This document shows, piece after piece, positions 3,111 to 41,297 of a stretch of DNA of 64,000 nucleotides; the stretch's first letter is position 1, and every line of letters starts with the position of its first letter. The translations under genes and the position numbers were made by a program. Below the pieces are notes generated by a model. The model had not been told where the DNA came from, did not search any database, and saw nothing but the letters and a program-made list of their open reading frames with translations. The stretch comes from Escherichia phage EP1, in the sequence record OR892555.1; one strand, written 5' to 3'.

Positions 3111-3893
3111 TTAGTTCTTTGCAGCTAAGAACTTGATATTGGAAATGTCTACAATTGCTTCAGCATCTTTCTCATTTGCTGCAAGAATGTACACATCAGG
3201 TTCACTTCCAAATGTCGCTGCACGTTGCATACTGCCTTTCAACGGTGGGGTAACTTGAGCGTTACTTAGAGACATTCTCTCAACCGGAGGGTTACTCCGA
3301 TGTACCTTGTTCTTACGATGCCTGAAGAGGGTAACTCCGTCTTCGTTGACAACGGCTACCCCTGCAAAGTATTGTGGTTCACTGTGATTACCCCATGTTG
3401 ACAGAGTATTAAACATTGCCTCTTCAAATACGTAAAGGTAAACATCAACATCTTTCAAGATGTGATTCATGATTACCACAACAGCTTTCGGGTCAAGTCC
3501 ACCAATACCTGCACCAATCATTGGGAGACCAACTTTCTTCAGTTGATTCACTTTGCAGTACTGGTTAAGGCTCAACAAAGCACTCTCAAGAGCATCGTAA
3601 CGAGCATCTTTACCAGTCTTCAACTGAGTGTACAGGTTAGCAATACGGCCTTGTTTAAGACGTGCTACAGAGAGTTTACCAAGCAGTTTCTGACAAGGTT
3701 TATGCTCTCTTCCTCCTGCTACACGGTAGACTTCGGCATCAGTTTCATAGGCTTTTGGGTAACCTTTAGAAATCTTGTCAGCAATACCTGCACCCATCAG
3801 GTTCATACAGTTGCAACCGTGACCAATGATATCAAACTTACCTTTTTCAAAGTCTGCGAAGATATCACCTTTGATGACTTTTACAATACCCAT
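3111..3893 (-). CDS. macro-domain protein (ADP-ribose binding/processing) with ~90-aa C-terminal extension
   Basis: N-terminal GDIF...DIIGHGCNCMNLMGAGIADKI and later GLPMIGAGIGG match macro-domain glycine-rich signatures. Confidence 0.8.
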   Translation of the reverse strand: MGIVKVIKGDIFADFEKGKFDIIGHGCNCMNLMGAGIADKISKGYPKAYETDAEVYRVAGGREHKPCQKLLGKLSVARLKQGRIANLYTQLKTGKDARYDALESALLSLNQYCKVNQLKKVGLPMIGAGIGGLDPKAVVVIMNHILKDVDVYLYVFEEAMFNTLSTWGNHSEPQYFAGVAVVNEDGVTLFRHRKNKVHRSNPPVERMSLSNAQVTPPLKGSMQRAATFGSEPDVYILAANEKDAEAIVDISNIKFLAAKN

Positions 3894-11743: not shown

Positions 11744-11768
11744 TTAAAAAGGCTCCCGTAGGAGCCTC
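11744..11768 (-). terminator. rho-independent terminator (GGCTCC-cgta-GGAGCC then U-run) after the Nampt-family gene
   Basis: read directly. Confidence 0.6.
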
Positions 11769-11781
11769 TTATAATACTTAT

Positions 11782-13599
11782 TTAAAGCTGTCTGTCAATA
11801 ACATTTCGTACATCACGAAGATTAACGTAGCCATATGGCTGAGAGTCACAGAATACCAACTTCAGAGCACACTGAGGGTTATCTAGTACGCTTTCAAATT
11901 CTGCAAAACCAAAACCATCTACAGCTTCCAGCTTATCACCATCCCACATAGGGACTACACCGCCAAAAGCAGACTTCTTCAGACCACTATCAGTTTTAGG
12001 GTCTTTTGCCAGCATGATTTCTTCCCCATCTATCTGTGCAAGAGTTGCTTTGACAGCGAATGCAAAGGTATCACGAGTCAGGTACTGGTAAGTGTATGAA
12101 CCAACACCAAAAACAACGTTAGAACTTGCAAAGCCCTTTTCAGCAAGACGACTAAGAATCTCTTCAGCACGTTCCAGAGTGATAGAATCACCGTAGATTA
12201 AGCCAATGTGCTCATCAAGAACTTTGTAGCCTTTAGAGTTTACAGTTCCACCAAAGATATTGTACAGAGTCTTGATAGCACCATCAATTTCTGCTGTCAG
12301 CATACGTTTAACAACAACTTTACCAGTCTTGTAAGTTTCTTTCAGGTTAACTGTATCAGCAACGTTAAAGTCTTCTGCATCAACAACTAACTCATAACCT
12401 TCAGAGATTAGCCAAGCAGAGAAACCATAACCCATATCTGTCATGTTACAATTCAAGATTGCATCAAGCAGATAAGTATTGTCAGGAGAAATGGTTGACA
12501 TGTGTTTGTAATACATACTCTTAGCATTTTCCCATTCAATTGCACGATAACCAGTAACAATGTGTACAGGGTCACCGGAATCTGGACGGATTACCAGTTT
12601 ACCGTCACGTTTCAGGATTACTTCACGAAGTTCTGGAAGAATCTGTGTAACAGTGCGCCAGAAGTTATAAGTATCTGAAACCACACTTGCAATGCCAGTT
12701 GGGTAAACATCAACTAACAGATGTTCGAAGGTGTCTACTTCACCGCGCCAACGCATTGCATCTAACAGGTTTTCAGACTGCATAAGATGCCAATCACTAA
12801 CCTCTTTAGATGTACCATTCCATGAGATGTTTGCACACATCACAGAGTGTTCAGTTGCTGGTACAGAGTTGCCAATATCACTTACAGTCATGAACTGACC
12901 ATATGCACGTTTAGCAGTATACACAGCAGGGAAGCTGTCAGTGCCTTTAAAGCTGGTCAGGTGACCTACAGCATTGAAAGCATCATCTGTAAAGCCAGAC
13001 ATACCACGCATTGCAAAGTCGTGACACTGCCAAGGTAGATGGAAGTCATTATCACAGGTCTTATCAGCCCAAGATTTACAAATACGTTTGTAATGCAGTG
13101 CAATAGTTGCAATGGTACAAGCTTTCCAGATTTCAGCAGAGAAAGCATCTTCCAGATAACCAGCTACCCAATGGAAACCTTCGACGGTATTTTTGAAGAT
13201 AATCATTGGAACGCGCATAGGAACGATTGTACCTTCTTCAACAGAGTACACTGCAACTGGCAGATAACCTAAGTCATGAAGTTCTTCCCAATGATGACGC
13301 TTGATAGCATCTGCACCAAGAACACCATTCATTATTTCCAAGATTTCATCAACTGCTTCTTTCTTATCACGTTCAAAGAAAGTTGCGTTCCAATGGTCTA
13401 CTAAGTAATCTTTAACGAAACGTTGAATACCAAAAGCAACTACACCGTCAGTCTCCAAAGGGGTGTTAAACCATTTGTCACCACGAGGTGTCAGGTTCAG
13501 CATCAGATACTGAGTTGCACTCGGATACTGGTAGATGTGACCAGCTTTATAAGCATCTGCATTAAGACCTGCTGGAACTGCATAGATTGATTTAGACAT
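11782..13599 (-). CDS. nicotinamide phosphoribosyltransferase-family enzyme (Nampt/NadV-like, or nicotinamide ADP-ribose transferase of a NAD+ reconstitution pathway)
   Basis: 605-aa ORF with overall Nampt-family character; paired with a Prs-family gene; exact substrate cannot be decided by eye. Confidence 0.75.
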   Translation of the reverse strand: MSKSIYAVPAGLNADAYKAGHIYQYPSATQYLMLNLTPRGDKWFNTPLETDGVVAFGIQRFVKDYLVDHWNATFFERDKKEAVDEILEIMNGVLGADAIKRHHWEELHDLGYLPVAVYSVEEGTIVPMRVPMIIFKNTVEGFHWVAGYLEDAFSAEIWKACTIATIALHYKRICKSWADKTCDNDFHLPWQCHDFAMRGMSGFTDDAFNAVGHLTSFKGTDSFPAVYTAKRAYGQFMTVSDIGNSVPATEHSVMCANISWNGTSKEVSDWHLMQSENLLDAMRWRGEVDTFEHLLVDVYPTGIASVVSDTYNFWRTVTQILPELREVILKRDGKLVIRPDSGDPVHIVTGYRAIEWENAKSMYYKHMSTISPDNTYLLDAILNCNMTDMGYGFSAWLISEGYELVVDAEDFNVADTVNLKETYKTGKVVVKRMLTAEIDGAIKTLYNIFGGTVNSKGYKVLDEHIGLIYGDSITLERAEEILSRLAEKGFASSNVVFGVGSYTYQYLTRDTFAFAVKATLAQIDGEEIMLAKDPKTDSGLKKSAFGGVVPMWDGDKLEAVDGFGFAEFESVLDNPQCALKLVFCDSQPYGYVNLRDVRNVIDRQL

Positions 13600-13643
13600 G
13601 TTTTAATCTCTCTCAAAGTGGGGCTTAAAAGCCCCTGATTAAT

Positions 13644-14525
13644 TTAATAAATGTTTGCTACAGTTACTTGACCGAAATGAGTCAGACCACGGTCTTTCAC
13701 ACTACCTAAAGAATCTGTAGTGTAGATGTGTGAAATACCATTGTCAAGTAGGTTTTCAACACCTTTTGAGAAAATACCATGTGTTACATACAGTTCAACT
13801 TTAGCTGCTCCAGCTTCACGAAGATACTTGGCTGCTTCAATGAAGGTACGACCACCATCACAGATATCATCAATGATGAGTACAGTTTTACCAGTAAGGT
13901 CTACATCATCAAGCAGACGCATACCTGTAATCTCACCAGTCTTAAGGTCTCGAACCTTAGCCATTGTTACGTAAGGCTTATCAACCTCTTTAGCCGTCTC
14001 TGCAATCTTCTTAGCTGCTCCTGCATCTGGTGCTACCAAGAAATCAATGGTAGGCTCACTGGCATAATGTGCTGCAACATCTTTTTGATGGATGTTTTGG
14101 AAGCATTTGAATAGGTTGTCTGCAACGTCACTGTGAGCATCCAGAGCACATACTGCATCAAAATCCATTGCATTTACCAGATTAGCAAACACTTTAAGTG
14201 CTGCTGCATCACCTTTAAACATGTGACGGTCATATCTAGCATTTGGCAGATAAGCAAAAATAACAGTTTTCATAGTTGCTTTCTGAGGAATCATTTTGTC
14301 AATTGCCTCTTTTGCCAGAGCTAAAGCAAACAAGGTGTCTTTGTCATAACCCTGTACAGTGAAGATGACGTTCTCAATATTGGAAGCATTCTTTTCAGCA
14401 TAGGTCACTAGGTCTTCAGAGAAGTTACCACCAATTTCTCCAGACGGGAACTGGATAATGTTGAACTCTTCTTGGTGAGCACCTTTTTTCTGTGAATGCA
14501 ACAGTACGCTAATAATAGTTTTCAT
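13644..14525 (-). CDS. ribose-phosphate pyrophosphokinase-family enzyme (Prs-like, or ADP-ribose pyrophosphokinase of a NAD+ reconstitution pathway)
   Basis: 293 aa; Prs-type motifs DAHSD and PRPP-binding loop VLIIDDICDGGRT. Confidence 0.8.
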   Translation of the reverse strand: MKTIISVLLHSQKKGAHQEEFNIIQFPSGEIGGNFSEDLVTYAEKNASNIENVIFTVQGYDKDTLFALALAKEAIDKMIPQKATMKTVIFAYLPNARYDRHMFKGDAAALKVFANLVNAMDFDAVCALDAHSDVADNLFKCFQNIHQKDVAAHYASEPTIDFLVAPDAGAAKKIAETAKEVDKPYVTMAKVRDLKTGEITGMRLLDDVDLTGKTVLIIDDICDGGRTFIEAAKYLREAGAAKVELYVTHGIFSKGVENLLDNGISHIYTTDSLGSVKDRGLTHFGQVTVANIY

Positions 14526-14537
14526 CTTTAATCTCTC

Positions 14538-14825
14538 TCAATCAAAAGTTACAAAGGTCACAGCCATAGCTGTTTTACATTTTTGTGGATTCACATCATG
14601 ATAGATGACTGAACAGTTGCCTGTTCCATCTGGTACTGGTTTTGTCCAAGTACGTCGAATACGTGGTTCACCAAGTTCACAAAGTTCTTTGTAGAATCCA
14701 TTTGTGTGATGGTCAATCATCTCAATAGCTAATGAGTCTGGTACATGACCACGAATCATATACATCTCACAACCATTACCAGCATCACTTACAAGTTCTT
14801 TTATTTCCCAATCTGTTCTAGCCAT
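14538..14825 (-). CDS. hypothetical protein
   Basis: 95-aa ORF. Confidence 0.5.
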   Translation of the reverse strand: MARTDWEIKELVSDAGNGCEMYMIRGHVPDSLAIEMIDHHTNGFYKELCELGEPRIRRTWTKPVPDGTGNCSVIYHDVNPQKCKTAMAVTFVTFD

Positions 14826-15333
14826 GATAAGTCGCCCTATAAACTGTCTCGAACTTCAACAAGAGAGATATTGCCAGAACTGCATATTCCTTGTCAAGCA
14901 TTGATGGCATATTATTTTTAAGATAATCTTTTTGTTCTTCATAGGTCATCTTAGGAGTGTTCATAATAGTCTCTCCCTGCTTCTGGTTATCAAGCTGAGT
15001 CTGGATAAACCAGTTAGAGCAATGATGCTCACCACCCTTTGTGACGGGCTTGTGGTGGCCTAATGTAAAGGCTTGCTTGCCAGAGTATCTGCATAGCTTA
15101 TTAAGTACTGCAATAGTATTCTTGACAACACAGTACTCATATAGGTTATCTATGGTGTAATGAGGGTAGTATCTGAAGAGTGATTTGTCACGGAAGCTTC
15201 CACGATTCCAAAGAACCATGTGATTAGAGTTTGAAGGGTCATATTTATGAGAGTCTATAAATTCTTGACGCTCATCAAAGTCAAGACGTAGAACAGACAT
15301 TGCAGCAGAACGTTTAAGATTTGAAAGATACAT
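14818..15333 (-). CDS. putative HNH-family endonuclease
   Basis: GHHKPVTKGGEHHCSNW...LDNQKQG resembles the HNH core (HH..P...GG...N). Confidence 0.35.
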   Translation of the reverse strand: MYLSNLKRSAAMSVLRLDFDERQEFIDSHKYDPSNSNHMVLWNRGSFRDKSLFRYYPHYTIDNLYEYCVVKNTIAVLNKLCRYSGKQAFTLGHHKPVTKGGEHHCSNWFIQTQLDNQKQGETIMNTPKMTYEEQKDYLKNNMPSMLDKEYAVLAISLLLKFETVYRATYHG

Positions 15334-23914: not shown

Positions 23915-24239
23915 GATATTTATCCAAGTTTCGTTTCAGGTAAAGCCACCCATCATCAGTGCGTTCAACACCCATGAACAGTGGAGCCGTTACAACCTTT
24001 CCAAACGTATTGCGATGCTGACAAATCTCATAAGAATACGTTTTCTCAATGTTCAGGCCATATTTGAAAAGAACTGCTTTCAAGACCTGTTCATTATCCA
24101 GTAAAGTTTCTGGTGTCTCTCCATATTTTGCTAACAGTGAATCATTCATAAACACTGTCATAGAGAGATTGTAGTTTGAGAAATGGCTCTTTGGAGCCAC
24201 CTCTTCAGTATTAATGTTCTGTGAATCCATTATAACCAA
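23907..24239 (-). CDS. hypothetical protein
   Basis: 110-aa ORF. Confidence 0.5.
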   Translation of the reverse strand: MVIMDSQNINTEEVAPKSHFSNYNLSMTVFMNDSLLAKYGETPETLLDNEQVLKAVLFKYGLNIEKTYSYEICQHRNTFGKVVTAPLFMGVERTDDGWLYLKRNLDKYHV

Positions 24240-24966
24240 CCCCTTTTAACCAATTCTTCAGGTTATTTGCATCATAGTTCAGTTTCGGGTATGAGGTCAC
24301 ATGGAACTTCTCACCGTCATAGTAAACAATATCCGCAAGCCATAATCCGTTTTCTCGGCAGAAGTCTTTGTCTGCTTTTGAACTGATTGGTCGAACTTCT
24401 GTGAAGTCACTCAATCCAAGGTCTTTCAAACTTCCTACAAGACCTTTACAGATAACGCATGTGTCAGATGTTACCACGAATAATTCTTTGCTTTCAAGTT
24501 CCGCAATGAACTCTGCAAGCTGTACTTTAGGAAGATTAGACTGCTTCATAACCTTCTTATCAGACTCACGGATAATGGCGTACCATTCTTTTCCATCAAT
24601 CATTGAAGCACGTACATGACATTCATCACCAGTATACTTCTCGATATCTGCAAGACGCTTCAAAGCTTCTTCGTAGTTATCGGTATACTTCAGGTTGTTA
24701 TTCTCACAGACTGCTTTCATAGCTCCGTCATGGTCATGCTGTGAAAGGTAAATCAGTCCATCAAGAACATACTGTAAATCCGCCTGAGCATCAAGAGCCT
24801 CAATAGGGTCTTTTTCATCAACAGCTTTTAAAAGCTCTTTGGCCTCTTCTAACATACAAAGTGCTTGACTACGCATTGAAGACCAGTACTCAGGTGTATA
24901 AGGAGTCAACGGGGTATTACCACAACGCTGATTCCAAGTTAAAACGGATTCTCTGGAATTAAACAT
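24211..24966 (-). CDS. two-domain protein: N-terminal all-alpha NTP-pyrophosphohydrolase-like region, C-terminal thioredoxin/glutaredoxin-like fold
   Basis: acidic EExxE...D helices (LEEAKELL, DAQADLQYVLDG) then CVIC with glutaredoxin-like spacing; both assignments tentative. Confidence 0.4.
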   Translation of the reverse strand: MFNSRESVLTWNQRCGNTPLTPYTPEYWSSMRSQALCMLEEAKELLKAVDEKDPIEALDAQADLQYVLDGLIYLSQHDHDGAMKAVCENNNLKYTDNYEEALKRLADIEKYTGDECHVRASMIDGKEWYAIIRESDKKVMKQSNLPKVQLAEFIAELESKELFVVTSDTCVICKGLVGSLKDLGLSDFTEVRPISSKADKDFCRENGLWLADIVYYDGEKFHVTSYPKLNYDANNLKNWLKGVGYNGFTEH

Positions 24967-25193
24967 TAAACCTCCTGAAACAGTTTCTGCTGAGACTCAA
25001 TATAATCCAGTCGGCCTTTCAGTTCAACACGTTTGTTAATCAGGTGCTGAATCTGGGACTCAAGAGCCTCCATTTCGGACTCCGTAGCTTCTTTAGCTTT
25101 GACAATTGCATCTTTCAGTGCTGCAATGTGGCTGTCAATTTTAGCTACGTGGTCATTATTAATTTTGTTAAATATCATCTTATTCTCTCTCAT
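24966..25193 (-). CDS. small coiled-coil protein
   Basis: 75-aa ORF, heptad-like charged sequence. Confidence 0.4.
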   Translation of the reverse strand: MRENKMIFNKINNDHVAKIDSHIAALKDAIVKAKEATESEMEALESQIQHLINKRVELKGRLDYIESQQKLFQEV

Positions 25194-25680
25194 TAAGTTT
25201 CATGATTTTATGGATTCTCTTCTCAGCATCTTCATAAGTCTCTTTAGTCAGAAACTTGATTGCTGCAATGTTTGCATTGTAGAAGAGTCGAAGCTTGGAG
25301 TCAATCCTTTTTGTCATGACGTCAAACTTATGTTGAAGGTTAGCTTCTCCGTAGACCAAACCACCTCGCGTATAATAAGTTTGCACAATATAGAAGTCAA
25401 ACTCTTTTTCACAGAAAGTTTCAATATCTTTCTTAATATACTCAGAAGAGGTCTGGTAAACCATCCAGTCACTCTCTTTTGTCACAATCTTACGTCTGGT
25501 CTTCCCAGCTACTTTCTTCTTGGTGACATTATTAAACTGCTTCTTACCAATGTAATACTGTCCAGTCTTTTTGCAGTACACTAAGTAAACGAAACCAAAA
25601 TACTTAGCGGGGTCAATCTCCCCGCACAGTGAAATCCAATGTCCATATTCATGGCAATTGCCAAAACCTTTAATCTTCAT
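25180..25680 (-). CDS. GIY-YIG family endonuclease-like protein
   Basis: FGFVYLVYCKKTGQYYIGKK matches the GIY...YIG spacing. Confidence 0.5.
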   Translation of the reverse strand: MKIKGFGNCHEYGHWISLCGEIDPAKYFGFVYLVYCKKTGQYYIGKKQFNNVTKKKVAGKTRRKIVTKESDWMVYQTSSEYIKKDIETFCEKEFDFYIVQTYYTRGGLVYGEANLQHKFDVMTKRIDSKLRLFYNANIAAIKFLTKETYEDAEKRIHKIMKLNERE

Positions 25681-31895: not shown

Positions 31896-32318
31896 TTAAC
31901 TCTCTCTCATTTTGTTAAGTGTTTGTCGTGATAACTTTAAGCTTTCTGTAGAGGAAAAGTCAAGAACTTTTTCAGACCTTGGGAAGTAGTGTCTATCCCA
32001 TGAACTTTCTACATCGCTAATCAGTGTTGTTAGGTTATCTAAGTCTGTTCCGTTTTGCAACTTCTTTTTTAAAGAATCTATCAAGAAGAGTGTATCTTTT
32101 GCTTTACGCCTCTCAGCAGATATCTCCTTCATATGCTCAAAGACTGAACATTTCATTCTTTCATCGTAACCTTCGGAGAGTTCAATCTCATGTTGAACAT
32201 CAACCATTCGACGATGATGGTAAGCGTACTCCTTTTGAGCAGCAATGTCAAGTTCTTCCAACTTTTTTAAAGCTCTCATGAAGTCAGCTATGTCTGGGTG
32301 AACAAACATTCTCTGCAT
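31896..32318 (-). CDS. hypothetical protein
   Basis: 140-aa ORF, first gene of the minus-strand block. Confidence 0.5.
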   Translation of the reverse strand: MQRMFVHPDIADFMRALKKLEELDIAAQKEYAYHHRRMVDVQHEIELSEGYDERMKCSVFEHMKEISAERRKAKDTLFLIDSLKKKLQNGTDLDNLTTLISDVESSWDRHYFPRSEKVLDFSSTESLKLSRQTLNKMRES

Positions 32319-32515
32319 AATGCCCTCTTTTAAGTACCTATTAAACTTAATCTGTTTTCTTTACGTATTCTATACGTATAACTTTAAAGCTTCTTAAAAG
32401 CTATTAAAAATCTTTTAAGGGTTTTTAAAGAAACTGTATAGTTAATCTGTAAAGGGAGTCTTTTAAGTTAAAACCCACTCCGCAAGATTAACACCTTGTC
32501 AAGTGAATTGTCAAC

Positions 32516-32544
32516 TTGCTTTTTTAAACTTTTTGCAGTAATGT
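32516..32544 (+). promoter_or_regulatory. candidate sigma70-like promoter for the DNA polymerase operon (TTGCTT-17 nt-TAATGT)
   Basis: hexamers in the divergent intergenic region; GGAG RBS before ATG at 32576. Confidence 0.4.
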
Positions 32545-32575
32545 ATTGAGTCAATGATTTTGAGAGGGAGTAAAA

Positions 32576-35275
32576 ATGGAAAACGTAGATTTTGAAAACT
32601 TGCACTTGGTAGGTGATACAGAAACTGATGGGTTACTCCTTGAGTTCACAAAAGCACATGTAATGGCATTTGCAGATTACAAAGATGATGGTGATGAACC
32701 TGCTGTGTGGGTATTCACCGATGAACCTATTCTTGGTCACAAATGCACTAAGTACATCAAAGGTGGTCTTCGTGAAGGTGTAGAGTTTGCTCTCAAGGCA
32801 AAGCGTCTCTGTATTCATAACGGTCTTGGCTACGACTGGTGGGTGTTCAATCACATTGCACCGGACTTATGGAACTTTGACAATCCGAAGTGTAAACCTT
32901 GGGGAGACTTCTTTCAGGATTCTCTTATTCAGTCTCGTGTTCAGTGGATGGATAGACCTACACCAAAAGGTTACAAAGGTGCGCATGGTTTGGCTGCATG
33001 GGGTGCTCGTGTTGGTGTTCGTAAACCAGAGATTGAAGAGTGGGGTGTTTGGAATGCTGACATTCTGAACCGTGTTGTTGAGGATATTCGAATCAACGCC
33101 AAAACTAAACGTGCTCTTGATAACGAATACCTGAAGTTGAAGAAGTGTGGTGTAGACACTTACGAAACCTACATGCGAGCTAAAGAAACATCTTTCTGGA
33201 TGAGTCAGCAAGCCATCAACGGTTGGAAAGCTGATATTGAACTTATGCAGTTCCATGTCAAAGAACTTGACAGATTGACTGATGAATTAGCTGCTGAAGT
33301 TGAGCCTCATCTACCACCGACTATTAAGACGAAAGGTAAAGTTACTGGTGAAGAGTTTGCAAGGGCTTGGAACGAGTATGTTGAGACATTTGGTAAAGCA
33401 GATGGTCTGAAGCGCATCACTAAGTATCCAAAAACTAAGTTCCGTCAGCAGGTTCGTAATGGTGAGATGCAGACTTACGCTATCAAACCTTTTGGTAAAC
33501 CAACTACCAAGATTTTCAACATTGAGAAGCGTAACTGCTACACTCCAACTAACACGGTTACTGGAGAAGAGTACAAAGAAGGCTTCGTGGCAATGAAAGA
33601 TGCTCGTGCAGTTTGTAACGAGTTGAATGCTGCGATTGATAAGAAGTGCAAAGACTGGAAACCAGTTAAGACCGTGAAGACTGTGAAGTACTACAATAAT
33701 CACGTAGTAAATCACTTTGAACTTGAGTCAAGTCGTTACACAGGTTTGATTGATGCACCTTATACACCAATTGAGTTCGAAGTTTCACGCATGACTCAGG
33801 TTGCGGTTGTGAAGGATTATCTGAAAACTCTTGGCTGGATTCCTGATGACTGGAACTACAAGAAAGACTCTGATGGTCGTCCGGTGAAGGTTTGTCGCTT
33901 CAAAGACAACAAGAAGATGATTCGTAAACATCCGAAATGGCAAGAGATGGTGGAACGTTGCGGATTGAACTATGTTGAACATGAAGGTGTACAGTATATC
34001 GAACACAACTGGTCTGTGAAGAAGTACACAGATTTGCTTGAGCCTTGCTTGATTCGTACTTCACCGAAACTGACTGAATCATCTTACGATACAATTGAAG
34101 GTGAACTTGGACAGAAGATTGCGAAGTACTACACTTTGATGCACCGACGCAGAACTATTGAGAACTCAAAGGATGATGAAAAAGGTTGGTTAAACCAGAT
34201 TCGTCCAGATGGTCGTTTGAGTGCTGGTGCAATGGTGTTTGGTACTTCAACTGGACGCATGACACAATACGGAATTGTGAACGTACCTTCTGGTGCTGCT
34301 GTTTACGGTGAACCAATGAGGGCAGTCTGGATTTGTGAAGAAGGAACAAACGTAGTTTCCGTTGACATGAACTCTGCACAGCTTGTTTTACTGTGTAACT
34401 TTATGGGTGATAAAGAGTTCACCAAAGCGGTAACTCAGGGTAAAGAAGAGATTGAGTTTATCCGTCAGGAAGATGGCAGATATTACTGCAAACACTTTGA
34501 CGAATACCTGAATCCAGAAGTTGATAAGTATCTGCGTTATGACTCTGAAAACGACTTGTACGTAGTTTACTCAGGCACTGATGCTCATACACTGAACAGT
34601 ATCTACTTCAGCTTGAACGAAGAACAAGATATCTTGACTTGTCGTATGACTCAGGATGAAAATCTTCTTCACGAAATTAGTAAAGGTCGTAAAAAAGCTA
34701 AGAATGGTATCTATGCGTTACTGTTCGGTGCTGGTGATGAAAAGTTTGCTAAAACGATTAAAGCTGCGACTACTCAGGAAGGTGCATTGACTAAACAGAC
34801 TTACTTTGTGCGCTTGCCGAAGATTAAGAAACTGTTAGATGACTTGGAAGCTGACTTTAAGGCAACTAAGAAAGCACTTGAAGAGGTGTTTGGTAAAACT
34901 GCTGCAATTGCTAAAGGTGGTTTTGTCAAGGTAGCTGGAGCATGGTTGTGGTGTAAGTCTCCACACAAACTGTTAAACTATTTGCTGATGGGTTCAGAAA
35001 GTCAGGTTCAAAATGAGGCAATTAACCTTGCTTGTCGTAGAGCCTATGACGAAGGGTTGATGAAATTGAATGGACGTAAGCCAGCTATCGGCGCTAGGCT
35101 TCTTCTGGCATACCACGATGAGAATAGTTGGGAATGTCCAGAGAGTATGACTCAAGAAGTTAAAGCTATTACTGACTGGATGTACGGACAGGCTTCTAAA
35201 AACCTTGGGCTAAGGAAAGAAACTATGGTAACAGGTACTGGTAAGGTTGGTAAGAGTTGGTTGGAAGTGCACTAA
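32576..35275 (+). CDS. DNA polymerase, family A, with 3'-5' exonuclease domain
   Basis: 899 aa; exo motif VGDTETDGL; polymerase motif A DMNSAQLVLL, motif B KNGIYALLFGAG, motif C YHDE. Confidence 0.9.
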   Translation: MENVDFENLHLVGDTETDGLLLEFTKAHVMAFADYKDDGDEPAVWVFTDEPILGHKCTKYIKGGLREGVEFALKAKRLCIHNGLGYDWWVFNHIAPDLWNFDNPKCKPWGDFFQDSLIQSRVQWMDRPTPKGYKGAHGLAAWGARVGVRKPEIEEWGVWNADILNRVVEDIRINAKTKRALDNEYLKLKKCGVDTYETYMRAKETSFWMSQQAINGWKADIELMQFHVKELDRLTDELAAEVEPHLPPTIKTKGKVTGEEFARAWNEYVETFGKADGLKRITKYPKTKFRQQVRNGEMQTYAIKPFGKPTTKIFNIEKRNCYTPTNTVTGEEYKEGFVAMKDARAVCNELNAAIDKKCKDWKPVKTVKTVKYYNNHVVNHFELESSRYTGLIDAPYTPIEFEVSRMTQVAVVKDYLKTLGWIPDDWNYKKDSDGRPVKVCRFKDNKKMIRKHPKWQEMVERCGLNYVEHEGVQYIEHNWSVKKYTDLLEPCLIRTSPKLTESSYDTIEGELGQKIAKYYTLMHRRRTIENSKDDEKGWLNQIRPDGRLSAGAMVFGTSTGRMTQYGIVNVPSGAAVYGEPMRAVWICEEGTNVVSVDMNSAQLVLLCNFMGDKEFTKAVTQGKEEIEFIRQEDGRYYCKHFDEYLNPEVDKYLRYDSENDLYVVYSGTDAHTLNSIYFSLNEEQDILTCRMTQDENLLHEISKGRKKAKNGIYALLFGAGDEKFAKTIKAATTQEGALTKQTYFVRLPKIKKLLDDLEADFKATKKALEEVFGKTAAIAKGGFVKVAGAWLWCKSPHKLLNYLLMGSESQVQNEAINLACRRAYDEGLMKLNGRKPAIGARLLLAYHDENSWECPESMTQEVKAITDWMYGQASKNLGLRKETMVTGTGKVGKSWLEVH

Positions 35276-35284
35276 GGTATTGAA

Positions 35285-35797
35285 ATGATTACAGAAATTC
35301 GATTAAAGGAGATTTTAAAGTATGACCCCGATACAGGGGTCTTTACTTGGAAATTCAGAGAAGGTAATGCAAACTTTAACTCCAGATTTGGAGGCAAGAG
35401 GGCTGGAAACTACAGAACAAATACTGATGGTCACAAATCTGTCCAATTGCTGATTGATGGAAGGAGCTACCAAGCAAATCGTTTAGTTATCTTGTATATG
35501 GATGGATACCTACCCGATAAATCTTTACAGGTTGACCACAAAAACTGTGATGGATGGGATAACAGGTATTTGAATTTGAGGGTTTGCACAGCTTCACAAA
35601 ACTCTTGCAATCGGTCTAAGAAGTCTCTATCAGGTTTACCAAAAGGTGTTCAGAAGATAAGGAAACGTTTTAGGGCAATGCTTCGTTTGCAAGGAAGGAA
35701 TTACCATCTTGGGATGTTTGACACGCCTGAAGAAGCCCACGAAGCTTACTGTGAAGCTGCTATAAAACTCCACGGAGATTTTGCAAAACTTAGTTGA
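35285..35797 (+). CDS. HNH homing endonuclease with AP2 DNA-binding domain
   Basis: VDHKNCDGWDNRYLNLRVCTASQN HNH core; C-terminal AP2-like segment. Confidence 0.75.
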   Translation: MITEIRLKEILKYDPDTGVFTWKFREGNANFNSRFGGKRAGNYRTNTDGHKSVQLLIDGRSYQANRLVILYMDGYLPDKSLQVDHKNCDGWDNRYLNLRVCTASQNSCNRSKKSLSGLPKGVQKIRKRFRAMLRLQGRNYHLGMFDTPEEAHEAYCEAAIKLHGDFAKLS

Positions 35798-35822
35798 CAA
35801 GGTGCTCATGGAAGAGTACCAT
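35794..35822 (+). promoter_or_regulatory. sigma70-like promoter (TTGACA-17 nt-TACCAT) for downstream small genes
   Basis: consensus -35, TAnnnT -10, GGAG RBS before ATG at 35850. Confidence 0.45.
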
Positions 35823-35849
35823 ATACTATATATTGTATAGGAGACTTGT

Positions 35850-36050
35850 ATGACTATTTCAGAAATTGAAGTTCAACTGCAATGTGCTGGATACTCTCAA
35901 AGTGAGATTGAGTCTATGTGCATCATCATTTGCAGTAGCCATAAGCACCTCAAGCTTTCTAATGAAAATCTTCGCAAGGTTGATATTTTTATTGCTGGAG
36001 GTAAGATTATCAAGGATAAGACAGGCTACCTTAAAGGTGAACGTCTATGA
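35850..36050 (+). CDS. hypothetical protein
   Basis: 66-aa ORF with RBS. Confidence 0.45.
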   Translation: MTISEIEVQLQCAGYSQSEIESMCIIICSSHKHLKLSNENLRKVDIFIAGGKIIKDKTGYLKGERL

Positions 36051-36256
36051 GCCATCGTGGAAGAACTCATCTCGCCATGATGCAAGGGGCTTCAAAAGAG
36101 ACTATCAAGAATCGGAAGAAAACTCTTTTTGACAGAATGAATAGACTCATTGATAATGCAAGCCTACCTAACTCTGAAAAGGTTTTCTTGAAAGGGAATC
36201 TGAAGAGTATCGCACAGGAACTTATTGACATTGAATTTTGGAGACACCAAAAATGA
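36047..36256 (+). CDS. hypothetical protein
   Basis: 69-aa ORF, start overlaps upstream stop. Confidence 0.45.
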   Translation: MSHRGRTHLAMMQGASKETIKNRKKTLFDRMNRLIDNASLPNSEKVFLKGNLKSIAQELIDIEFWRHQK

Positions 36257-36504
36257 GCAATAAAGAGCAAGAAGCTTTAGCAATCTTCAAGAGCGAAGAC
36301 AAATCAATAGCTTTTGTCTCAGAGGCTTGGTGCAGAGATTTGGGGTATGATTGGTATCTCTTCTTATGCGCTAAGAAAGATGTTAAACCAGTTGATGAAA
36401 CCCGATTCAAAGAACTGTATAATATCTGCCAAGAGGGTTATGAAGAACATTACGAAGGTTCTTTGAATCTTGTAAATTCAAAAGCTTCAGACTTATTTTA
36501 TTGA
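36253..36504 (+). CDS. hypothetical protein (start moved to internal ATG)
   Basis: GGAGA RBS before ATG at 36253. Confidence 0.45.
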   Translation: MSNKEQEALAIFKSEDKSIAFVSEAWCRDLGYDWYLFLCAKKDVKPVDETRFKELYNICQEGYEEHYEGSLNLVNSKASDLFY

Positions 36505-36514
36505 GAGGTTCAAA

Positions 36515-36760
36515 ATGTTAAAATTATTGATACCAGCTTTAGTATTCTTACTGGTGGGGTGCAACCCTTCTTATGAGAATAAGGATGCCTCTTACAGACT
36601 TCCTCCAGAAATGCAAGACTGCAAGATTTACAAGCTTAATGGTGATGCCATTAGCAAAGATGTTATTGTAGTTCGCTGCCCAAATTCTCAGACGACAACT
36701 TCTTACAAGTATGGTAAGAATAATCAGTCACACACCACAGTTTTTGATGGAGGATATTGA
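36515..36760 (+). CDS. putative lipoprotein
   Basis: signal peptide with LVGC lipobox. Confidence 0.5.
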   Translation: MLKLLIPALVFLLVGCNPSYENKDASYRLPPEMQDCKIYKLNGDAISKDVIVVRCPNSQTTTSYKYGKNNQSHTTVFDGGY

Positions 36761-36761
36761 T

Positions 36762-36968
36762 ATGCAGGTTCTGGTAAACTTTATCTATAAGTATGAAAAC
36801 ATCTTCAGCACTATGACTGTAGCTCAACGCAATCCGGTTATCCCACGAGAAGGGGAGACTGTTGAGATTAATGATTGGAACTACAGAGTTGAAGAGGTCA
36901 AGCATAAACTTAAAGATGGTTATGACCACCAAGTTGTAAATGTGTATTTAAAAGGTAAGTGGCAATGA
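36762..36968 (+). CDS. hypothetical protein (start moved to internal ATG)
   Basis: GGAGG RBS before ATG at 36762. Confidence 0.4.
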   Translation: MQVLVNFIYKYENIFSTMTVAQRNPVIPREGETVEINDWNYRVEEVKHKLKDGYDHQVVNVYLKGKWQ

Positions 36969-37059
36969 GAGTCTTACATATCATCTCTGAAGATTTTGGA
37001 GGGTGCTCTTGGCACTCATTTTTCACAAAAGGCTGTCTAGCTTGTGAGGCACGTAATAA

Positions 37060-38160
37060 ATGACAATTCTGTACAAACAAAATAAAGATGGTTCTTTCAA
37101 CGTCTGGTCATGTGTTGCTGTAGGTGATAAAGTCGTCACAACTTATGGTAAAGAAAATGGCAAGATGATGTTTGAAGAGTACACAGCAGAACCTAAGAAC
37201 ATCGGTAAGAAGAATGAGCGTAATGCTGAACAGCAAGCTCTCTTTGAAGTTGCTGCTAAGTACAAGAAGCAGGTTGACCGTAAAGGTTATGCTTATTCAA
37301 AATCTGAAGCAGAGAACACTGAAAAGGTTGGTGTACAACTCGCACAAGATGCTGCAAAGGTAAGCCATGCCAAGTATTTGAAGTTCCCTGCTGATGCTCA
37401 ACCTAAGCTTGATGGTGTTCGTTGCCGCATATCAAGAGATGTTGACTCAGTGAACTTCACAGCTTATTCCCGTGAAAATACTGTGTACAACGTACCTGAA
37501 GAGTTGATTCCAGATTTACTCATGATGCTTAAACTCCATAAAGATGTTGATGATTTTGACGGTGAGATTTATGCTCATGGTTGGGACTTGGAAGATATTG
37601 TATCTATGATTAAGAATGCTGACAATCCAGACCGTCACCTGCTTAAATTCTACTGGTATGATATCTGTGATAAAACTAAAACTTGGCCTGAGCGTCGTGG
37701 AATCATTGATAACTCACCAATTGTTGAACTCGGTGATGCTTGCAGAGTTGTGCCTGTTCAAACTATCCGTGTCAACTCTTGGGAAGAGTTCGACAAAGCC
37801 CATGATAATTGGGTTAAGCTGAAGTTTGAAGGGGCTATGTACCGTTCAATCTCTGAAGAATCTTTCTACGAGTGTAGTCACCGTTCATACTTCTTAATCA
37901 AGCATAAGAAGATGCACACTGAAGAGTTTAAAGTAACTGGTGTGAAGACTGATAAACGTGGTCATGGTAAGTTCGTTGTAGAAACTCTTCCTAACGTCTT
38001 TGTAGATGTTTCATGGAAAACTACCCATGATAAGAAACAGTATCTTGCTGAACATCCTGAAGAGTTTATCGGGAAGCCTTTGACGGTTCAGTTCCAGAAG
38101 ATGACTCGTAAGGGGTCTTTACAGTTCCCTGTTGGCCTCGTTATACGAGATTATGAATAA
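37060..38160 (+). CDS. ATP-dependent DNA ligase
   Basis: adenylation motif I KLDGVR (KxDG) with ligase-like downstream motifs. Confidence 0.8.
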   Translation: MTILYKQNKDGSFNVWSCVAVGDKVVTTYGKENGKMMFEEYTAEPKNIGKKNERNAEQQALFEVAAKYKKQVDRKGYAYSKSEAENTEKVGVQLAQDAAKVSHAKYLKFPADAQPKLDGVRCRISRDVDSVNFTAYSRENTVYNVPEELIPDLLMMLKLHKDVDDFDGEIYAHGWDLEDIVSMIKNADNPDRHLLKFYWYDICDKTKTWPERRGIIDNSPIVELGDACRVVPVQTIRVNSWEEFDKAHDNWVKLKFEGAMYRSISEESFYECSHRSYFLIKHKKMHTEEFKVTGVKTDKRGHGKFVVETLPNVFVDVSWKTTHDKKQYLAEHPEEFIGKPLTVQFQKMTRKGSLQFPVGLVIRDYE

Positions 38161-38166
38161 AAGTTG

Positions 38167-38194
38167 TTGACATACACTCTCCGGTAGATATACT
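38167..38194 (+). promoter_or_regulatory. strong sigma70-like promoter (TTGACA-16 nt-TATACT) inside a 7-bp inverted repeat CCGGTAG/CTACCGG
   Basis: near-consensus hexamers; GGAG RBS before ATG at 38245. Confidence 0.55.
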
Positions 38195-38244
38195 AGCAAT
38201 ATAAAATTTGATATAGGAACTACCGGATGAGTTAGGAGAAGAAA

Positions 38245-38625
38245 ATGAAAAAGATTATGGTAGGTGTCATTCTGGCAACTCTGAGTTTTGGTGCATCAGC
38301 TATGAAGATGCCTGAAGCAGACTTTAGCAAGGTCTCTATGGAGGCTTGTCAGATTGTTCGTAAAGTCGTAACAGATGCTGGAGAGTTGACTAAACCGTTA
38401 TCTTCTCCAACTGTAATGGAAATGTCTGACCGTATCACTGATTACAATTACCGTGTGATGGCAGACTACTACGAAGCTGTTTCTGATGCTATGGTCACTC
38501 AGGATGTTGACTTGCTTGATGACAAAGACATTGAGAAGGTTGAAGATACTAAGCGTGACATGATGGATGAAACTTTTAAAGGTGTTCATTATTTTGTTGA
38601 AAAGCGTACTTGTGTAGGTTTATGA
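38245..38625 (+). CDS. secreted/periplasmic hypothetical protein
   Basis: N-terminal signal peptide MKKIMVGVILATLSFGASA. Confidence 0.5.
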   Translation: MKKIMVGVILATLSFGASAMKMPEADFSKVSMEACQIVRKVVTDAGELTKPLSSPTVMEMSDRITDYNYRVMADYYEAVSDAMVTQDVDLLDDKDIEKVEDTKRDMMDETFKGVHYFVEKRTCVGL

Positions 38626-38626
38626 T

Positions 38627-38830
38627 ATGAAGAAGAATCATTGCAGAAAGAACTATGGAGAAGTGCTTGACGATGAAGGTTATGCAATCTTTCGAGTTTA
38701 CTGTGCAGATGACTCTGAAGTAGATAAAGCACTTGATGATTATATCAATGGTACTCGTGAAAACGTCAGAGCAACAAACATAGATTCATTGATTGACACT
38801 TCCAGAAAACGGAGGAAGAAAGATGAATGA
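38627..38830 (+). CDS. hypothetical protein
   Basis: 67-aa ORF. Confidence 0.4.
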   Translation: MKKNHCRKNYGEVLDDEGYAIFRVYCADDSEVDKALDDYINGTRENVRATNIDSLIDTSRKRRKKDE

Positions 38831-39122
38831 AGTCTTTGACCCTTACGCCCCACAAGATAAGTGGGAAGCCGATAGAGAGTATGAGATGGAAAGTTATATC
38901 TGTCCAATGGATGTAGACGAAATGAGAGAGTTCGTTGCATTCCGTTTTGAAAAAGAAATTGAGAAAAGAAAACTTTCTCAGGCACAAGTGGCAAAAATTT
39001 GTGATATCTCTCAAAGTCGTGTTTCCAACATTGTCAATGGTACTGGAAAGATTACCCTTGAATACATGTTGAAAGCTTGTGAAAAACTTGGTGTTAACTT
39101 CAACTTAAGGTTGTCAGATTAA
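38823..39122 (+). CDS. helix-turn-helix DNA-binding protein (XRE-like)
   Basis: LSQAQVAKICDISQSRVSNIVNG HTH motif; GGAGG RBS before ATG at 38823. Confidence 0.55.
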   Translation: MNEVFDPYAPQDKWEADREYEMESYICPMDVDEMREFVAFRFEKEIEKRKLSQAQVAKICDISQSRVSNIVNGTGKITLEYMLKACEKLGVNFNLRLSD

Positions 39123-39123
39123 T

Positions 39124-39483
39124 ATGAAACGTGAAAATGCAATCATCAAAGGTAACTTCGCAATTGGCTTCTACGGGAAACCTACTGAAGCTGAGAAGGT
39201 ATGGGGTCATGAGATTCTCGAAGAGATGATTCCAAAACTCCAAAAAGGAGAAATCAAGCATTCTGAAAAGAATCGTGTGAAAGGTTATATGGCAATTGGT
39301 TCAGCTATATCTAACATCAAACTTGAGACGACATGTGCAAAAGATGTTCGTAACTCGTTTATCAAAGAACTTTTCAATAACCTTGATGGTGTTGATGCTA
39401 CCGCTATCTGGCTTGATATTGATGGTGTTAAGTATACAACTTTCGTATTTAAAAACGAGGATATCAAATGTCTCTTCCCGTAA
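39124..39483 (+). CDS. hypothetical protein
   Basis: 119-aa ORF. Confidence 0.45.
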   Translation: MKRENAIIKGNFAIGFYGKPTEAEKVWGHEILEEMIPKLQKGEIKHSEKNRVKGYMAIGSAISNIKLETTCAKDVRNSFIKELFNNLDGVDATAIWLDIDGVKYTTFVFKNEDIKCLFP

Positions 39484-39968
39484 AAATTGACTTGTTCTTC
39501 GGATACAATCTGATGACAGGATGTATGCTCAGTCTTCCAAAGTCTCCTTATCGTACTGAGAAGGGTGCTGTGAAACGTGCTGCACACTACAATAATGACT
39601 TAGGTCGTTTGCAGACGATTTACAAGTGGCTTGAAGAAGACGGTCGCGTGAATGAGTACTTTCATCAGCTTCGTATGTCTAATGAAGAAAATAAGATGGG
39701 TTACGAAATGTTCCCACGTCTTTACAAAGTGACTTCACCAACTTCTCAAACTTGGAATGAGAAGTCTATTGAGGGTTACAAAAAGGTCACAATGTCTCCG
39801 TTTAGTAGTGGTGCAGAGTTTGAGAAGCTACGTGAGATAATTTATCAGACTGTTGCAAAGCGTGTTGCAAAGGGTCTTTCTTATAATGAAAAGATTGACT
39901 GGAACACTCAAAAGGTTATACAATTCTTTGCATACGATAATGACAAACAAACTTTTGTAGAGGTTTAA
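39468..39968 (+). CDS. hypothetical protein
   Basis: 166-aa ORF. Confidence 0.5.
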   Translation: MSLPVKIDLFFGYNLMTGCMLSLPKSPYRTEKGAVKRAAHYNNDLGRLQTIYKWLEEDGRVNEYFHQLRMSNEENKMGYEMFPRLYKVTSPTSQTWNEKSIEGYKKVTMSPFSSGAEFEKLREIIYQTVAKRVAKGLSYNEKIDWNTQKVIQFFAYDNDKQTFVEV

Positions 39969-39969
39969 A

Positions 39970-40488
39970 ATGAAGATTGGAAACAGCTTAACAGAGCCAG
40001 AAGCAATCCTGCTTAAGGGTGTTATCAAAGAACATCTGAAAAATCGTAGACTCCAAGAAGGTACAATCCTGATTGAGACAAACTACGAAGCCGGAACGAT
40101 TGAGTTTCTTGATGAAGATACTGGTGATGCACTTTGCCTTTTACCAACTCACCTCTTCACTACTGAGTTCCGAGATTCTAAATCAATCTCTGTGAAGCTG
40201 GTTCCAAGCATTGAGTTGTATGAAGGTATGCAATATCCACGTAGCTTCAAAGCTTTACTTAACATCTTCATAGATGACATTGTAGATTTAGTAAGGCCAG
40301 AAGCTGGTGAGTATGTAATCACTGCTGAGTGTAAGAATAGCAGCTACATCACTCTCGCTGGTAATCTTTCAACGATGAACTTCTTAGATTTCATCCCGAA
40401 ACACTTTGAAGACTTTCTTTCATCGTGTGGTGATGACCTTGATTTCATTGTAAAACTGGAACAAGAATATAAGGTGAATAAGAAATGA
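39970..40488 (+). CDS. hypothetical protein
   Basis: 172-aa ORF. Confidence 0.5.
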   Translation: MKIGNSLTEPEAILLKGVIKEHLKNRRLQEGTILIETNYEAGTIEFLDEDTGDALCLLPTHLFTTEFRDSKSISVKLVPSIELYEGMQYPRSFKALLNIFIDDIVDLVRPEAGEYVITAECKNSSYITLAGNLSTMNFLDFIPKHFEDFLSSCGDDLDFIVKLEQEYKVNKK

Positions 40489-40754
40489 AAATCTTTAAAG
40501 TTGAACACTGTTACATGCAGAGTGGTGAGCCAATTCGTTGTCCACATTGTGGTGGCACAGACTTCCAAGGTGAGGTTACAGATATCATCTCTGGTCATGT
40601 AGCAGAAGAGTATACTCGTTGCCGTGGTTGTATGAAGATTGTTTCATTTTGGGCTTATGGAAGTTATGAGCCACACCCACACATTATTTACCATCCAGTT
40701 AAAGTGGTTAAGAACGTCATCAACTGGTTTATCATCAAGGGGTTTTTCAAATGA
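40485..40754 (+). CDS. small zinc-ribbon protein
   Basis: CPHCGG ... CRGC. Confidence 0.45.
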   Translation: MKIFKVEHCYMQSGEPIRCPHCGGTDFQGEVTDIISGHVAEEYTRCRGCMKIVSFWAYGSYEPHPHIIYHPVKVVKNVINWFIIKGFFK

Positions 40755-41296: not shown

Positions 41297-41297
41297 T

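Follow-up and report, generated by a model that had tools for sequence, protein, structure and literature searches.

NAD+ reconstitution pathway 1 (NARP1) is a significant recent discovery, in which phages restore a metabolite that the immune system of the host has destroyed. The founding NARP1 operon, bas63_0079/0080 of Escherichia phage JohannRWettstein (Bas63), was deleted by Osterman et al. (bioRxiv 10.1101/2024.02.11.579819). The deletion sensitised the phage ~20-fold to SIR2-HerA, and ADPR-PP was seen only when wild-type Bas63 was combined with the defence system (Osterman et al., bioRxiv 10.1101/2024.02.11.579819). The Adps of Bas63 purified poorly and, therefore, the biochemistry was carried out on the SpbetaL1 and ICP1 homologs, which are only ~36-55% identical. 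So far, enzyme activities leading to ADPR-PP and NAD+ have been shown for the SpbetaL1, ICP1, DyoEdafos and Paenibacillus homologs, and for Bas63 by metabolomics. Counter-defence has been documented against SIR2-HerA for the Bas63 operon, and against Thoeris I, DSR1/2 and SEFIR for other NARP1 operons.

Both enzymes of the pathway have well-known relatives. Adps shares its superfamily and overall chemistry with canonical Prs (E. coli b1207), which transfers the pyrophosphoryl group of ATP to the C1 hydroxyl of ribose. Namat does so with the canonical Nampts (human NAMPT, Xcc Nampt and H. ducreyi NadV), which join nicotinamide to an activated ribose. Structures have been reported for the Adps of Vibrio phage ICP1, in which residues H121, D161, K185, D212 and D213 are needed for ADPR-PP formation (PMC13586617), and crystal structures for the Namat of SpbetaL1 (PDB 9w5w, 9w5x; PMC12774641). 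Other arrangements have also been described. NARP2 comprises a Nampt and a bifunctional NMNAT/Nudix enzyme, and NARP3 a PnuC-like transporter and a NadR-like enzyme. In NARP1-AP, found in Vibrio phage Gary-like thalassaviruses, a Macro-domain phosphatase named Adpp lies between Adps and Namat (bioRxiv 10.64898/2026.01.28.702374).

In this study, we analysed a 64-kb stretch of DNA, hereafter the window, from a phage genome of ~88 kb. The phage is a SUSP2-like member of the Felix-O1 type (Ounavirinae), and the window is ~95% identical in DNA sequence to SUSP2; the SUSP2 group belongs to Suspvirus, and Bas63 to Felixounavirus. A preliminary description of this DNA had reported a Prs-like gene and a Nampt-like gene side by side, separated by a GC hairpin and equipped with their own terminator. 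Our analysis bears out each of these elements, which are arranged as follows.

13644-14525, minus strand: adps, the Prs-like gene, 293 aa, ATG start, taken from the ORF list.
13600-13643, minus strand: intergenic spacer of 44 nt, with a GC hairpin and, after it, the Shine-Dalgarno-like stretch GAGAGAGA ahead of the start codon of namat.
11782-13599, minus strand: namat, the Nampt-like gene, 605 aa, ATG start, taken from the ORF list.
11747-11770, minus strand: intrinsic terminator closing the transcription unit, with five GC pairs in its 10-bp stem, a loop of 4 nt and a T-run.

Since both ORFs lie on the minus strand, the Prs-like gene is transcribed first and the Nampt-like gene second. The motifs quoted in the preliminary description are also in place in the 293-aa protein, DAHSD at aa 129-133 and VLIIDDICDGG at aa 215-225. 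Osterman et al. accepted a Namat homolog up to 10 genes away from adps; here the two genes are 44 nt apart on one strand and share a downstream terminator. Among the three ORFs on each side of the pair, we found only DUF7279 and DUF7390 and otherwise no match.

Altogether, the gene pair is very probably a NARP1 operon of a SUSP2-like coliphage of the Felix-O1 type. The suspicion that it encodes Adps and Namat rather than a true Prs and a true Nampt is supported by orthology, synteny, specificity residues and the lack of an NMNAT in the window. The operon is not new. At the DNA level the locus is 93-95% identical to those of SUSP2 and mistaenkt, the Adps of mistaenkt shares 98.3% identity with the 293-aa protein, and these near-identical genes are already catalogued as NARP1: supplementary tables give the SUSP2 and mistaenkt orthologs under Adps and under "Adps-associated" Namat (Osterman et al. 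2024, bioRxiv 10.1101/2024.02.11.579819).

The closest functionally documented relatives are bas63_0079 and bas63_0080, which are syntenic, full-length orthologs of the window pair. Both phages are Ounavirinae, and the gene order (small ORFs, adps, namat, small ORFs, rIIA, rIIB) is common to the two. Adps measures 293 aa in both and is 78% identical to Bas63_0079 over 292 aa, the full length; Namat measures 605 aa in the window and 593 aa in Bas63 and is 76% identical to Bas63_0080 over 605 aa. Moreover, the two Namats have in common two insertions, the SCL sequence xDKW and the SCH sequence GSYTYQY[LM]TRD, and both operons carry an intergenic hairpin. The differences amount to an amino-acid divergence of 22-24% and to 12 additional residues in the first insertion of the window Namat.

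The spacer hairpin (GGGGCU-UUUA-AGCCCC, 13620-13635) has a centroid energy of -11.5 kcal/mol (z = -2.4). Comparison of the window, Bas63 and SUSP2 revealed an invariant stem and a variable loop. No T-run follows this hairpin on the sense strand, and thus it is not a typical terminator. We infer only that it may act in mRNA processing or stability, or in attenuation. The structure downstream of namat, on the other hand, is a strong terminator with a stem and a T-run, reading 11770-11747 on the minus strand. It lies 12 nt past the stop codon and folds as RNA at -17.5 kcal/mol (z = -3.7), an energy reached by none of 200 shuffled sequences.

The 293-aa protein matches the Pfam families Pribosyltran and Pribosyl_synth, as well as phrog_619 (1e-97). 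Its sequence places it far nearer to biochemically proven Adps than to the Prs of E. coli. Identity is 36% to ICP1 Adps (122 bits; comparison sequence taken from GenBank) and 40% to River4 Adps (130 bits), and 26% to E. coli Prs (b1207, 63 bits), so that the bit score to ICP1 Adps is twice that to the E. coli enzyme. The fold is that of ICP1 Adps, with the same catalytic Lys, Asp pair, His and Cys-containing PP loop. The ICP1 catalytic residues are kept as R97, H131, D167, K190, D219, D220, C222, D223 and F228, their counterparts in ICP1 being R87, H121, D161, K185, D212, D213 and D216, together with Cys215 and Phe221 of the PP loop. Most of the conserved catalytic residues are also kept in canonical Prs and are therefore non-discriminating alone. 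The PP loop differs from that of E. coli Prs in its Cys, Gly and Phe (DDICDGGRT in the window protein, DDMIDTGGT in E. coli), and the C-terminus is shortened relative to this enzyme. Two adenine contacts of ICP1 Adps are not kept at the aligned positions, where F18 is matched by A16 and F92 by M102 (next to F103), in an N-terminal alignment that is unreliable (32% identity); Bas63 Adps has F16 and M102 at the same two positions. A sequence search of the PDB matched no solved Adps; its strongest hits came from archaeal and human Prs, none better than 1e-19.

The 605-aa protein matches NAPRTase, NAMPT_N and phrog_448 (2e-196). The profile and structure comparison proposed in the preliminary description has now been run, and the Nampt-like protein best matches the Namat crystal structure. 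In phmmer, the SpbetaL1 Namat (9w5w/9w5x) scored 4e-124 and human NAMPT 1e-40; canonical Nampts as a whole score far lower than Namat in searches with the window protein. An AF2 model (pLDDT 91.7) has the Namat crystal structures as top Foldseek matches (E = 2e-53, TM 0.94). Window and SpbetaL1 Namat share the fold, the catalytic residues and the adenine-clamp motif, and residues F195, D221, H251, R338 and D340 align to F189, D215, H245, R306 and D308 of SpbetaL1.

The 605-aa protein carries the adenine "selectivity clamp" of the Namat type, which true Nampts lack. The SCH motif GSYTYQYLTRD occupies aa 500-510 (nt 12070-12102) and contains the aromatic residues Tyr502 and Tyr506, which would stack on the adenine. 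These aromatics are missing from bona fide Nampts (GAQTYQRNTRD in HdNadV and GGALLQKVDRD in Xcc Nampt), and mammalian Nampts likewise have no aromatic residues at the SCH-equivalent positions. In addition, the SCL residues K42-W43 (nt 13471-13482) agree with Bas63. Residues G40-D41-K42-W43 align with T38-S39-R40 of SpbetaL1 Namat and with SDKW of Bas63, so that Lys42-Trp43 of the window stands against Arg40 of SpbetaL1. The pattern sought here, with either an Arg in third place as the stacking residue or a Lys/Tyr followed by the stacking residue, was recognised by alignment only.

The preliminary description had pointed out that the Nampt-like protein exceeds a typical Nampt by more than 100 residues. 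This extra length is real. SpbetaL1 Namat measures 491 aa and lacks both of the following insertions, which account for the difference.

12742-12828 (aa ~258-286), minus strand: Namat insertion 1, likewise specific to the lineage.
12283-12546 (aa ~352-439), minus strand: Namat insertion 2, a compact, lineage-specific alpha/beta subdomain of 88 aa.

Insertion 2 is absent from SpbetaL1 Namat and from bacterial homologs of 496 aa, and is present with variable length in the Namats of Ounavirinae-like phages, including Bas63. It is confidently folded in the full Namat model and reaches a pLDDT of 85.6 when modelled alone. Searches with this subdomain gave no match in Pfam and no fold match in the PDB (best E = 0.29). 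Of note, the long Namat is no reason to suspect another function, because the validated Namat of Bas63 (593 aa) is similarly long.

Published work on orthologs is our basis for inferring what the window pair does, both in its chemistry and as a counter-defence. During infection, a defence such as SIR2-HerA, type I Thoeris, DSR1/2, SEFIR or Kongming would cleave NAD+ into ADP-ribose and nicotinamide. Adps would then transfer the beta,gamma-pyrophosphate of ATP to the distal ribose of ADP-ribose, at its 1'' hydroxyl (ADPR + ATP -> ADPR-PP + AMP), and Namat would convert ADPR-PP and nicotinamide directly into NAD+ and PPi. Such a route would proceed with no NMN intermediate and no need for an NMN adenylyltransferase. 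As an ortholog of the founding example, the operon adds nothing new on the NARP1 mechanism. Correct recognition of NARP1 helps to predict which therapeutic phages escape SIR2-, TIR- or SEFIR-based defences. Some forward value lies only in the insertion subdomain of Namat and in an unlinked homolog of the Macro-domain Adpp, which is encoded elsewhere in the window.

3111-3893, minus strand: Macro-domain protein of 260 aa, a candidate accessory gene ~8 kb downstream of the pair.

This protein matches Pfam Macro (5e-8) and phrog_335, annotated as "phosphatase" (8e-100). It shares 32% identity (E = 6e-17) with the phosphatase that Vibrio phage River4 encodes between its adps and namat genes, and its PDB matches, to TARG1/OARD1 and to the ADP-ribose 1''-phosphate phosphatase Poa1p, are weak. 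Hence the tentative and rather doubtful suggestion that phages of the Felix-O1/SUSP type run a "split" NARP1-AP, with the 88-aa subdomain of Namat as a lineage-specific functional add-on. The Macro protein, of the TARG1/Poa1p-like class, might dephosphorylate ADPR-1''-phosphate produced by aRES-type defences and so feed ADPR to Adps, and insertion 2 might contribute, for example, regulation, partner binding or inhibitor evasion. If this were true, the published survey, which covered only two genes on either side of the pair, would have misclassified such phages as plain NARP1. NARP1-AP and the window share the Adps/Namat core, but the Macro gene of the window lies outside the operon, and its product carries an extra C-terminal region of ~100 aa. 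NARP1-AP proper, with the Macro phosphatase within two genes of the pair, does not apply here: the six ORFs flanking the pair (three on each side) have neither a Macro nor a RyR domain, and the homolog at 3111-3893 is ~8 kb off. Moreover, the Macro family has members in ~2,800 phage records, T4 Tk.4 among them, and these are mostly not neighbours of adps and namat genes, so any linkage of the window gene to NARP1 is speculative.

It is less probable still, though conceivable, that the operon has a dual use, with the PRPP-dependent NMN activity of Namat boosting the NAD+ pool besides NARP1 even when no defence is at work. The extra NAD+ would serve the phage's own NAD-consuming enzymes, and the location of the operon among genes of nucleotide metabolism (NrdAB, NrdDG, a MazG-like gene and a polynucleotide kinase) would suit such a role. 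Namat indeed retains PRPP-dependent NMN synthesis in vitro, and clamp mutations leave this activity unaffected; the partner enzyme, however, has no detected PRPP-producing activity. In Bas63, ADPR-PP is confined to cells with the defence and the phenotype of the mutant is defence-specific, which also speaks against a general supply of NAD+.

The conventional assignment fares worse. A true PRPP synthetase and a true Nampt would make NMN from ribose-5-phosphate and nicotinamide, and the host enzymes NadR or PncC/NadD/NadE would finish NAD+. Every database name for the two genes agrees with this assignment, which we nonetheless consider highly improbable. The broad subfamily model TIGR01251 is passed by Adps (135 bits against a cut-off of 113), whereas all NCBIfam Prs equivalog models fail, the best being NF002095 (113 bits, cut-off 296) and the remainder reaching 56-103 bits against cut-offs of 297-536. 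The other supporting model, NF006629, is passed by Namat (466 against 405 bits), but evidently does not separate Namat from Nampt, and the aromatic clamp specific to Namat is present. In addition, SpbetaL1 Adps yielded no product in an assay of Prs activity, and the E. coli host has a Prs of its own, only 26% identical to the window protein. All public records of this phage group still name the genes "ribose-phosphate pyrophosphokinase" and "nicotinamide phosphoribosyltransferase", which is why recognising NARP1 matters for annotation.

A NARP2 or NARP3 type, in which the Nampt-family gene seen here would work with an NMNAT, or a PnuC with a NadR-like enzyme, is effectively refuted at the sequence level within the window, given a partner gene that is Prs-like, the defining trait of NARP1, a nucleotidyltransferase motif that occurs in no window ORF, and no annotated NMNAT, NadR or PnuC in SUSP2 or in the examined half of Bas63. 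The earlier observation that no window protein carries an NMNAT motif thus stands: the pattern GxFxPx[HT]xGH has 0 matches among the six-frame ORFs of 50 aa or more (387 in all), and the annotation of the complete SUSP2 genome and of the examined half of the Bas63 genome lists no NMNAT. The looser pattern [HT]xGH has five matches, all rejected as NMNAT, in HNH-type or spurious ORFs. Finally, the only "NAD synthetase" label in SUSP2, on gp057, is a misnomer and was rejected as a sign of an NAD enzyme, since the window ortholog (25180-25680) turned out to be a SegE-type protein with a GIY-YIG domain (PF19835, 6e-26).

To judge from sequence comparisons, the gene pair of this window is very probably best explained by the published chemistry of NAD+ reconstitution pathway 1 (NARP1). 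In this pathway, an ADP-ribose pyrophosphokinase (Adps) would use ATP to pyrophosphorylate ADP-ribose (ADPR), and a nicotinamide ADP-ribose transferase (Namat) would condense the resulting ADPR-pyrophosphate (ADPR-PP) with nicotinamide to yield NAD+. The phage would thereby reverse the NAD+ cleavage performed by SIR2-, TIR-, and SEFIR-type effectors. The analysis of the window pair demonstrates orthology, motifs, and the absence of an NMN adenylyltransferase from the window, and we infer both the chemistry and the counter-defence phenotype from orthologs. The preliminary description had depicted a PRPP-synthetase-family gene adjoining a Nampt-family gene, with a GC hairpin between them and a terminator of their own. 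This layout was recovered as described; the sole correction concerns the strand, which is minus for both genes. The NAD+-rebuilding reading proposed in that description is supported as well. The relevant features are as follows.

13644-14525, minus strand: adps, 293 aa, open reading frame (ORF) with ATG; Pfam Pribosyltran and Pribosyl_synth; phrog_619 'ribose-phosphate pyrophosphokinase', 1e-97
11782-13599, minus strand: namat, 605 aa, ORF with ATG; Pfam NAPRTase and NAMPT_N; phrog_448 'nicotinamide phosphoribosyl transferase', 2e-196
13620-13635: hairpin GGGGCU/AGCCCC, inside the 44-nt adps-namat spacer
11770-11747, minus strand: terminator 3' of namat, 10-bp stem plus T-run, -17.5 kcal/mol, z = -3.7
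14538-15333, minus strand: two conserved ORFs, 171 aa (phrog_3500, weak HNH-like match) and 95 aa (phrog_4726), equivalent to genes 77-78 of Escherichia phage JohannRWettstein (Bas63)
15374-15351, minus strand: hairpin, the nearest upstream terminator-like site
25180-25680, minus strand: ortholog of gp057 of Escherichia phage SUSP2, 166 aa, SegE-type GIY-YIG, PF19835, 6e-26
3111-3893, minus strand: Macro-domain protein, 260 aa, N-terminal Macro (Pfam, 5e-8), phrog_335 'phosphatase', with a further C-terminal region of ~100 aa

Megablast places the window among the Felix-O1-like myoviruses (Ounavirinae). Its first 25 kb are ~95% identical to SUSP2 (genus Suspvirus), and the 2.9-kb locus shares 93-95% identity with mistaenkt, EcSzw-2, and SUSP2, and ~83% with many Felixounavirus-type phages. 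NARP1 was discovered in Bas63 (BASEL collection, Felixounavirus, Ounavirinae), in which deletion of genes 79-80 leads to sensitivity to SIR2-HerA. In the same study, ADPR-PP was seen only with the wild-type phage and the defence system together, and host PncC or NadR was dispensable for rescue (Osterman et al., 2024; 10.1101/2024.02.11.579819). Compared with the Bas63 genome record (MZ501086), the window Adps is 78% identical to bas63_0079 (293 aa) over 292 aa without gaps, and Namat is 76% identical to bas63_0080 (593 aa) over 605 aa. The gene context is also common to both phages, with two small ORFs upstream and, downstream, small ORFs followed by rIIA (788 aa) and rIIB; the intergenic hairpin is likewise kept in the Bas63 operon. 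Moreover, proteins of SUSP2, mistaenkt, and Felix O1 have been tabulated as Adps and 'Adps-associated' Namat (Osterman et al., 2024; supplementary tables, 10.1101/2024.02.11.579819), and the Adps proteins of mistaenkt and the window share 98.3% identity. The pair is an already-known system in the phage group of its discovery, with near-identical genes already catalogued, and the residual novelty lies in side observations only.

With low probability, a PRPP-dependent side activity of Namat may in addition be of physiological relevance. That the two proteins are simply a conventional PRPP synthetase (Prs) and Nampt, the functions named in their phrog labels, is very improbable. The DAHSD and VLIIDDICDGG motifs noted at the outset are present in Adps (from residues 129 and 215, respectively). 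Most catalytic residues of Adps are common to Prs, and for this reason the case for Adps was built on orthology rather than on motifs. The window protein scores 122-130 bits against the Adps of ICP1 and River4 and 63 bits against E. coli Prs, and falls by a wide margin below every NCBIfam Prs equivalog cut-off. In an alignment with the ICP1 enzyme, whose structures and mutants are described in a 2026 paper (PMC13586617), Lys185, His121, Asp161, Asp212, and Asp213 correspond to K190, H131, D167, D219, and D220, and the Cys-containing PP loop is kept (C222). Two adenine-contact Phe residues of ICP1 Adps appear not to be conserved, the positions aligned with them being A16 and M102. Bas63 also has M102, and the N-terminal alignment is weak.

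Namat and Nampt are separated by a two-part adenine 'selectivity clamp', one part of which is a variable loop giving a stacking residue (PMC12774641, 2026). The window Namat carries GSYTYQYLTRD at residues 500-510, and its loop, GDKW, has the order of Lys followed by a stacking residue described for Bas63. Bona fide Nampts differ in this segment (GAQTYQRNTRD in H. ducreyi, GGALLQKVDRD in Xanthomonas). All of the 120 best database homologs of the window Namat show the form GS-x6-TRD and have Phe or Tyr at motif position 3; at position 7, Phe or Tyr is found in 116 and Met in 4. In the SpbetaL1 enzyme, the residues aligned with the catalytic F195, D221, H251, R338, and D340 had been mutated or described. 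Phmmer ranked SpbetaL1 Namat chains first (4e-124), followed by HdNadV (9e-101), Xcc Nampt (5e-51), and human NAMPT (1e-40). In agreement with this ranking, the top Foldseek matches of a confident AlphaFold2 model (pLDDT 91.7) were Namat crystal structures (E = 2e-53, TM 0.94 on target).

The extra length of the Nampt-like protein, said to exceed a typical Nampt by more than 100 residues, was confirmed (605 aa versus 491 aa in the crystallised Namat). On alignment, it is accounted for by two lineage-specific insertions, at residues ~258-286 (12742-12828) and ~352-439 (12283-12546, minus strand). Both are compatible with NARP1 function, since the validated Bas63 enzyme has them and Ounavirinae-like phage Namats carry variable-length versions. 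The second insertion is predicted with high confidence (pLDDT about 86-95), in context and alone, to form a small alpha/beta subdomain, which had no Pfam match and no significant Foldseek match among solved structures (best E = 0.29).

The preliminary description had also reported that no window protein carries an NMN adenylyltransferase (NMNAT) motif. Indeed, GxFxPx[HT]xGH occurs in none of the six-frame window ORFs with a length of 50 aa or more, and loose HxGH matches were rejected, as they fall in HNH-type or spurious ORFs. No NMNAT, NadR, or PnuC is annotated in the full SUSP2 genome or in one half of that of Bas63. Hence, NARP2 (Nampt plus a bifunctional NMNAT/Nudix enzyme) and NARP3 (a PnuC-like transporter plus a NadR-like enzyme) are excluded at the sequence level for the window and these annotated regions. 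SUSP2 gp057, labelled 'NAD synthetase' (RefSeq; phrog_447), was rejected as an NAD enzyme: its window ortholog has a SegE-type GIY-YIG endonuclease-like domain, and the label is a propagated mis-annotation.

Regarding the spacer hairpin, its stem is invariant among the window, Bas63, and SUSP2 and its 4-nt loop differs; a conserved GAGAGAGA stretch separates it from the namat start codon. Because no T-run follows it on the sense strand, it is probably not a terminator, and may instead serve in processing, stability, or translational coupling. A 12-nt gap separates the end of the 95-aa ORF from the start codon of adps. Since the nearest upstream terminator-like site lies beyond the 171-aa and 95-aa ORFs, the unit closing at 11747 may also include them, co-transcribed with NARP1.

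A Macro-domain gene lies on the same strand, ~8 kb downstream of the pair. In Vibrio phage River4, a phosphatase gene is interposed between adps and namat, and the product of the window gene shares 32% identity with that phosphatase (E = 6e-17). This three-gene layout likens River4 to Vibrio phage Gary, in which NARP1-AP, that is, NARP1 plus the Macro-domain phosphatase Adpp, converts aRES-derived ADPR-1''-phosphate to ADPR (bioRxiv 10.64898/2026.01.28.702374). The window protein could be an unlinked Adpp. It also matches Poa1p and TARG1 weakly, and its family, of which T4 Tk.4 is a member, spans ~2,800 phage records; a dedicated tie to NARP1 is only hypothetical.

Among its best 120 homologs, the cellular proteins nearest to the window Namat are encoded on enterobacterial chromosomes, measure 496 aa, and carry the motif GSFTYQYNTRD. 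In Klebsiella michiganensis (DAHJTQ010000013.1, 3127-5491), such a gene is preceded by one for a Prs-like protein that shares 49% identity with the window Adps, in a core-chromosome context and adjoining a divergent gene for an NrtR-type (Nudix plus winged-helix) regulator. This locus looks like a chromosomal NARP1, may be under the control of that regulator, and agrees with earlier literature mentions of NARP1 loci in bacteria outside prophages.

Elsewhere in the window, a nucleotide-metabolism block includes a 251-aa nucleotide pyrophosphohydrolase of the MazG-like/PRA-PH type (24211-24966, minus strand; phrog_2144, 3e-94; PF01503, 2e-7), encoded upstream of the Nrd genes. GC skew is positive only at ~32000-42000, coinciding with plus-strand genes that include an 899-aa DNA polymerase (32576-35275) and an adjoining 170-aa HNH endonuclease (35285-35797); outside this block, the genes of the window are read from the minus strand.
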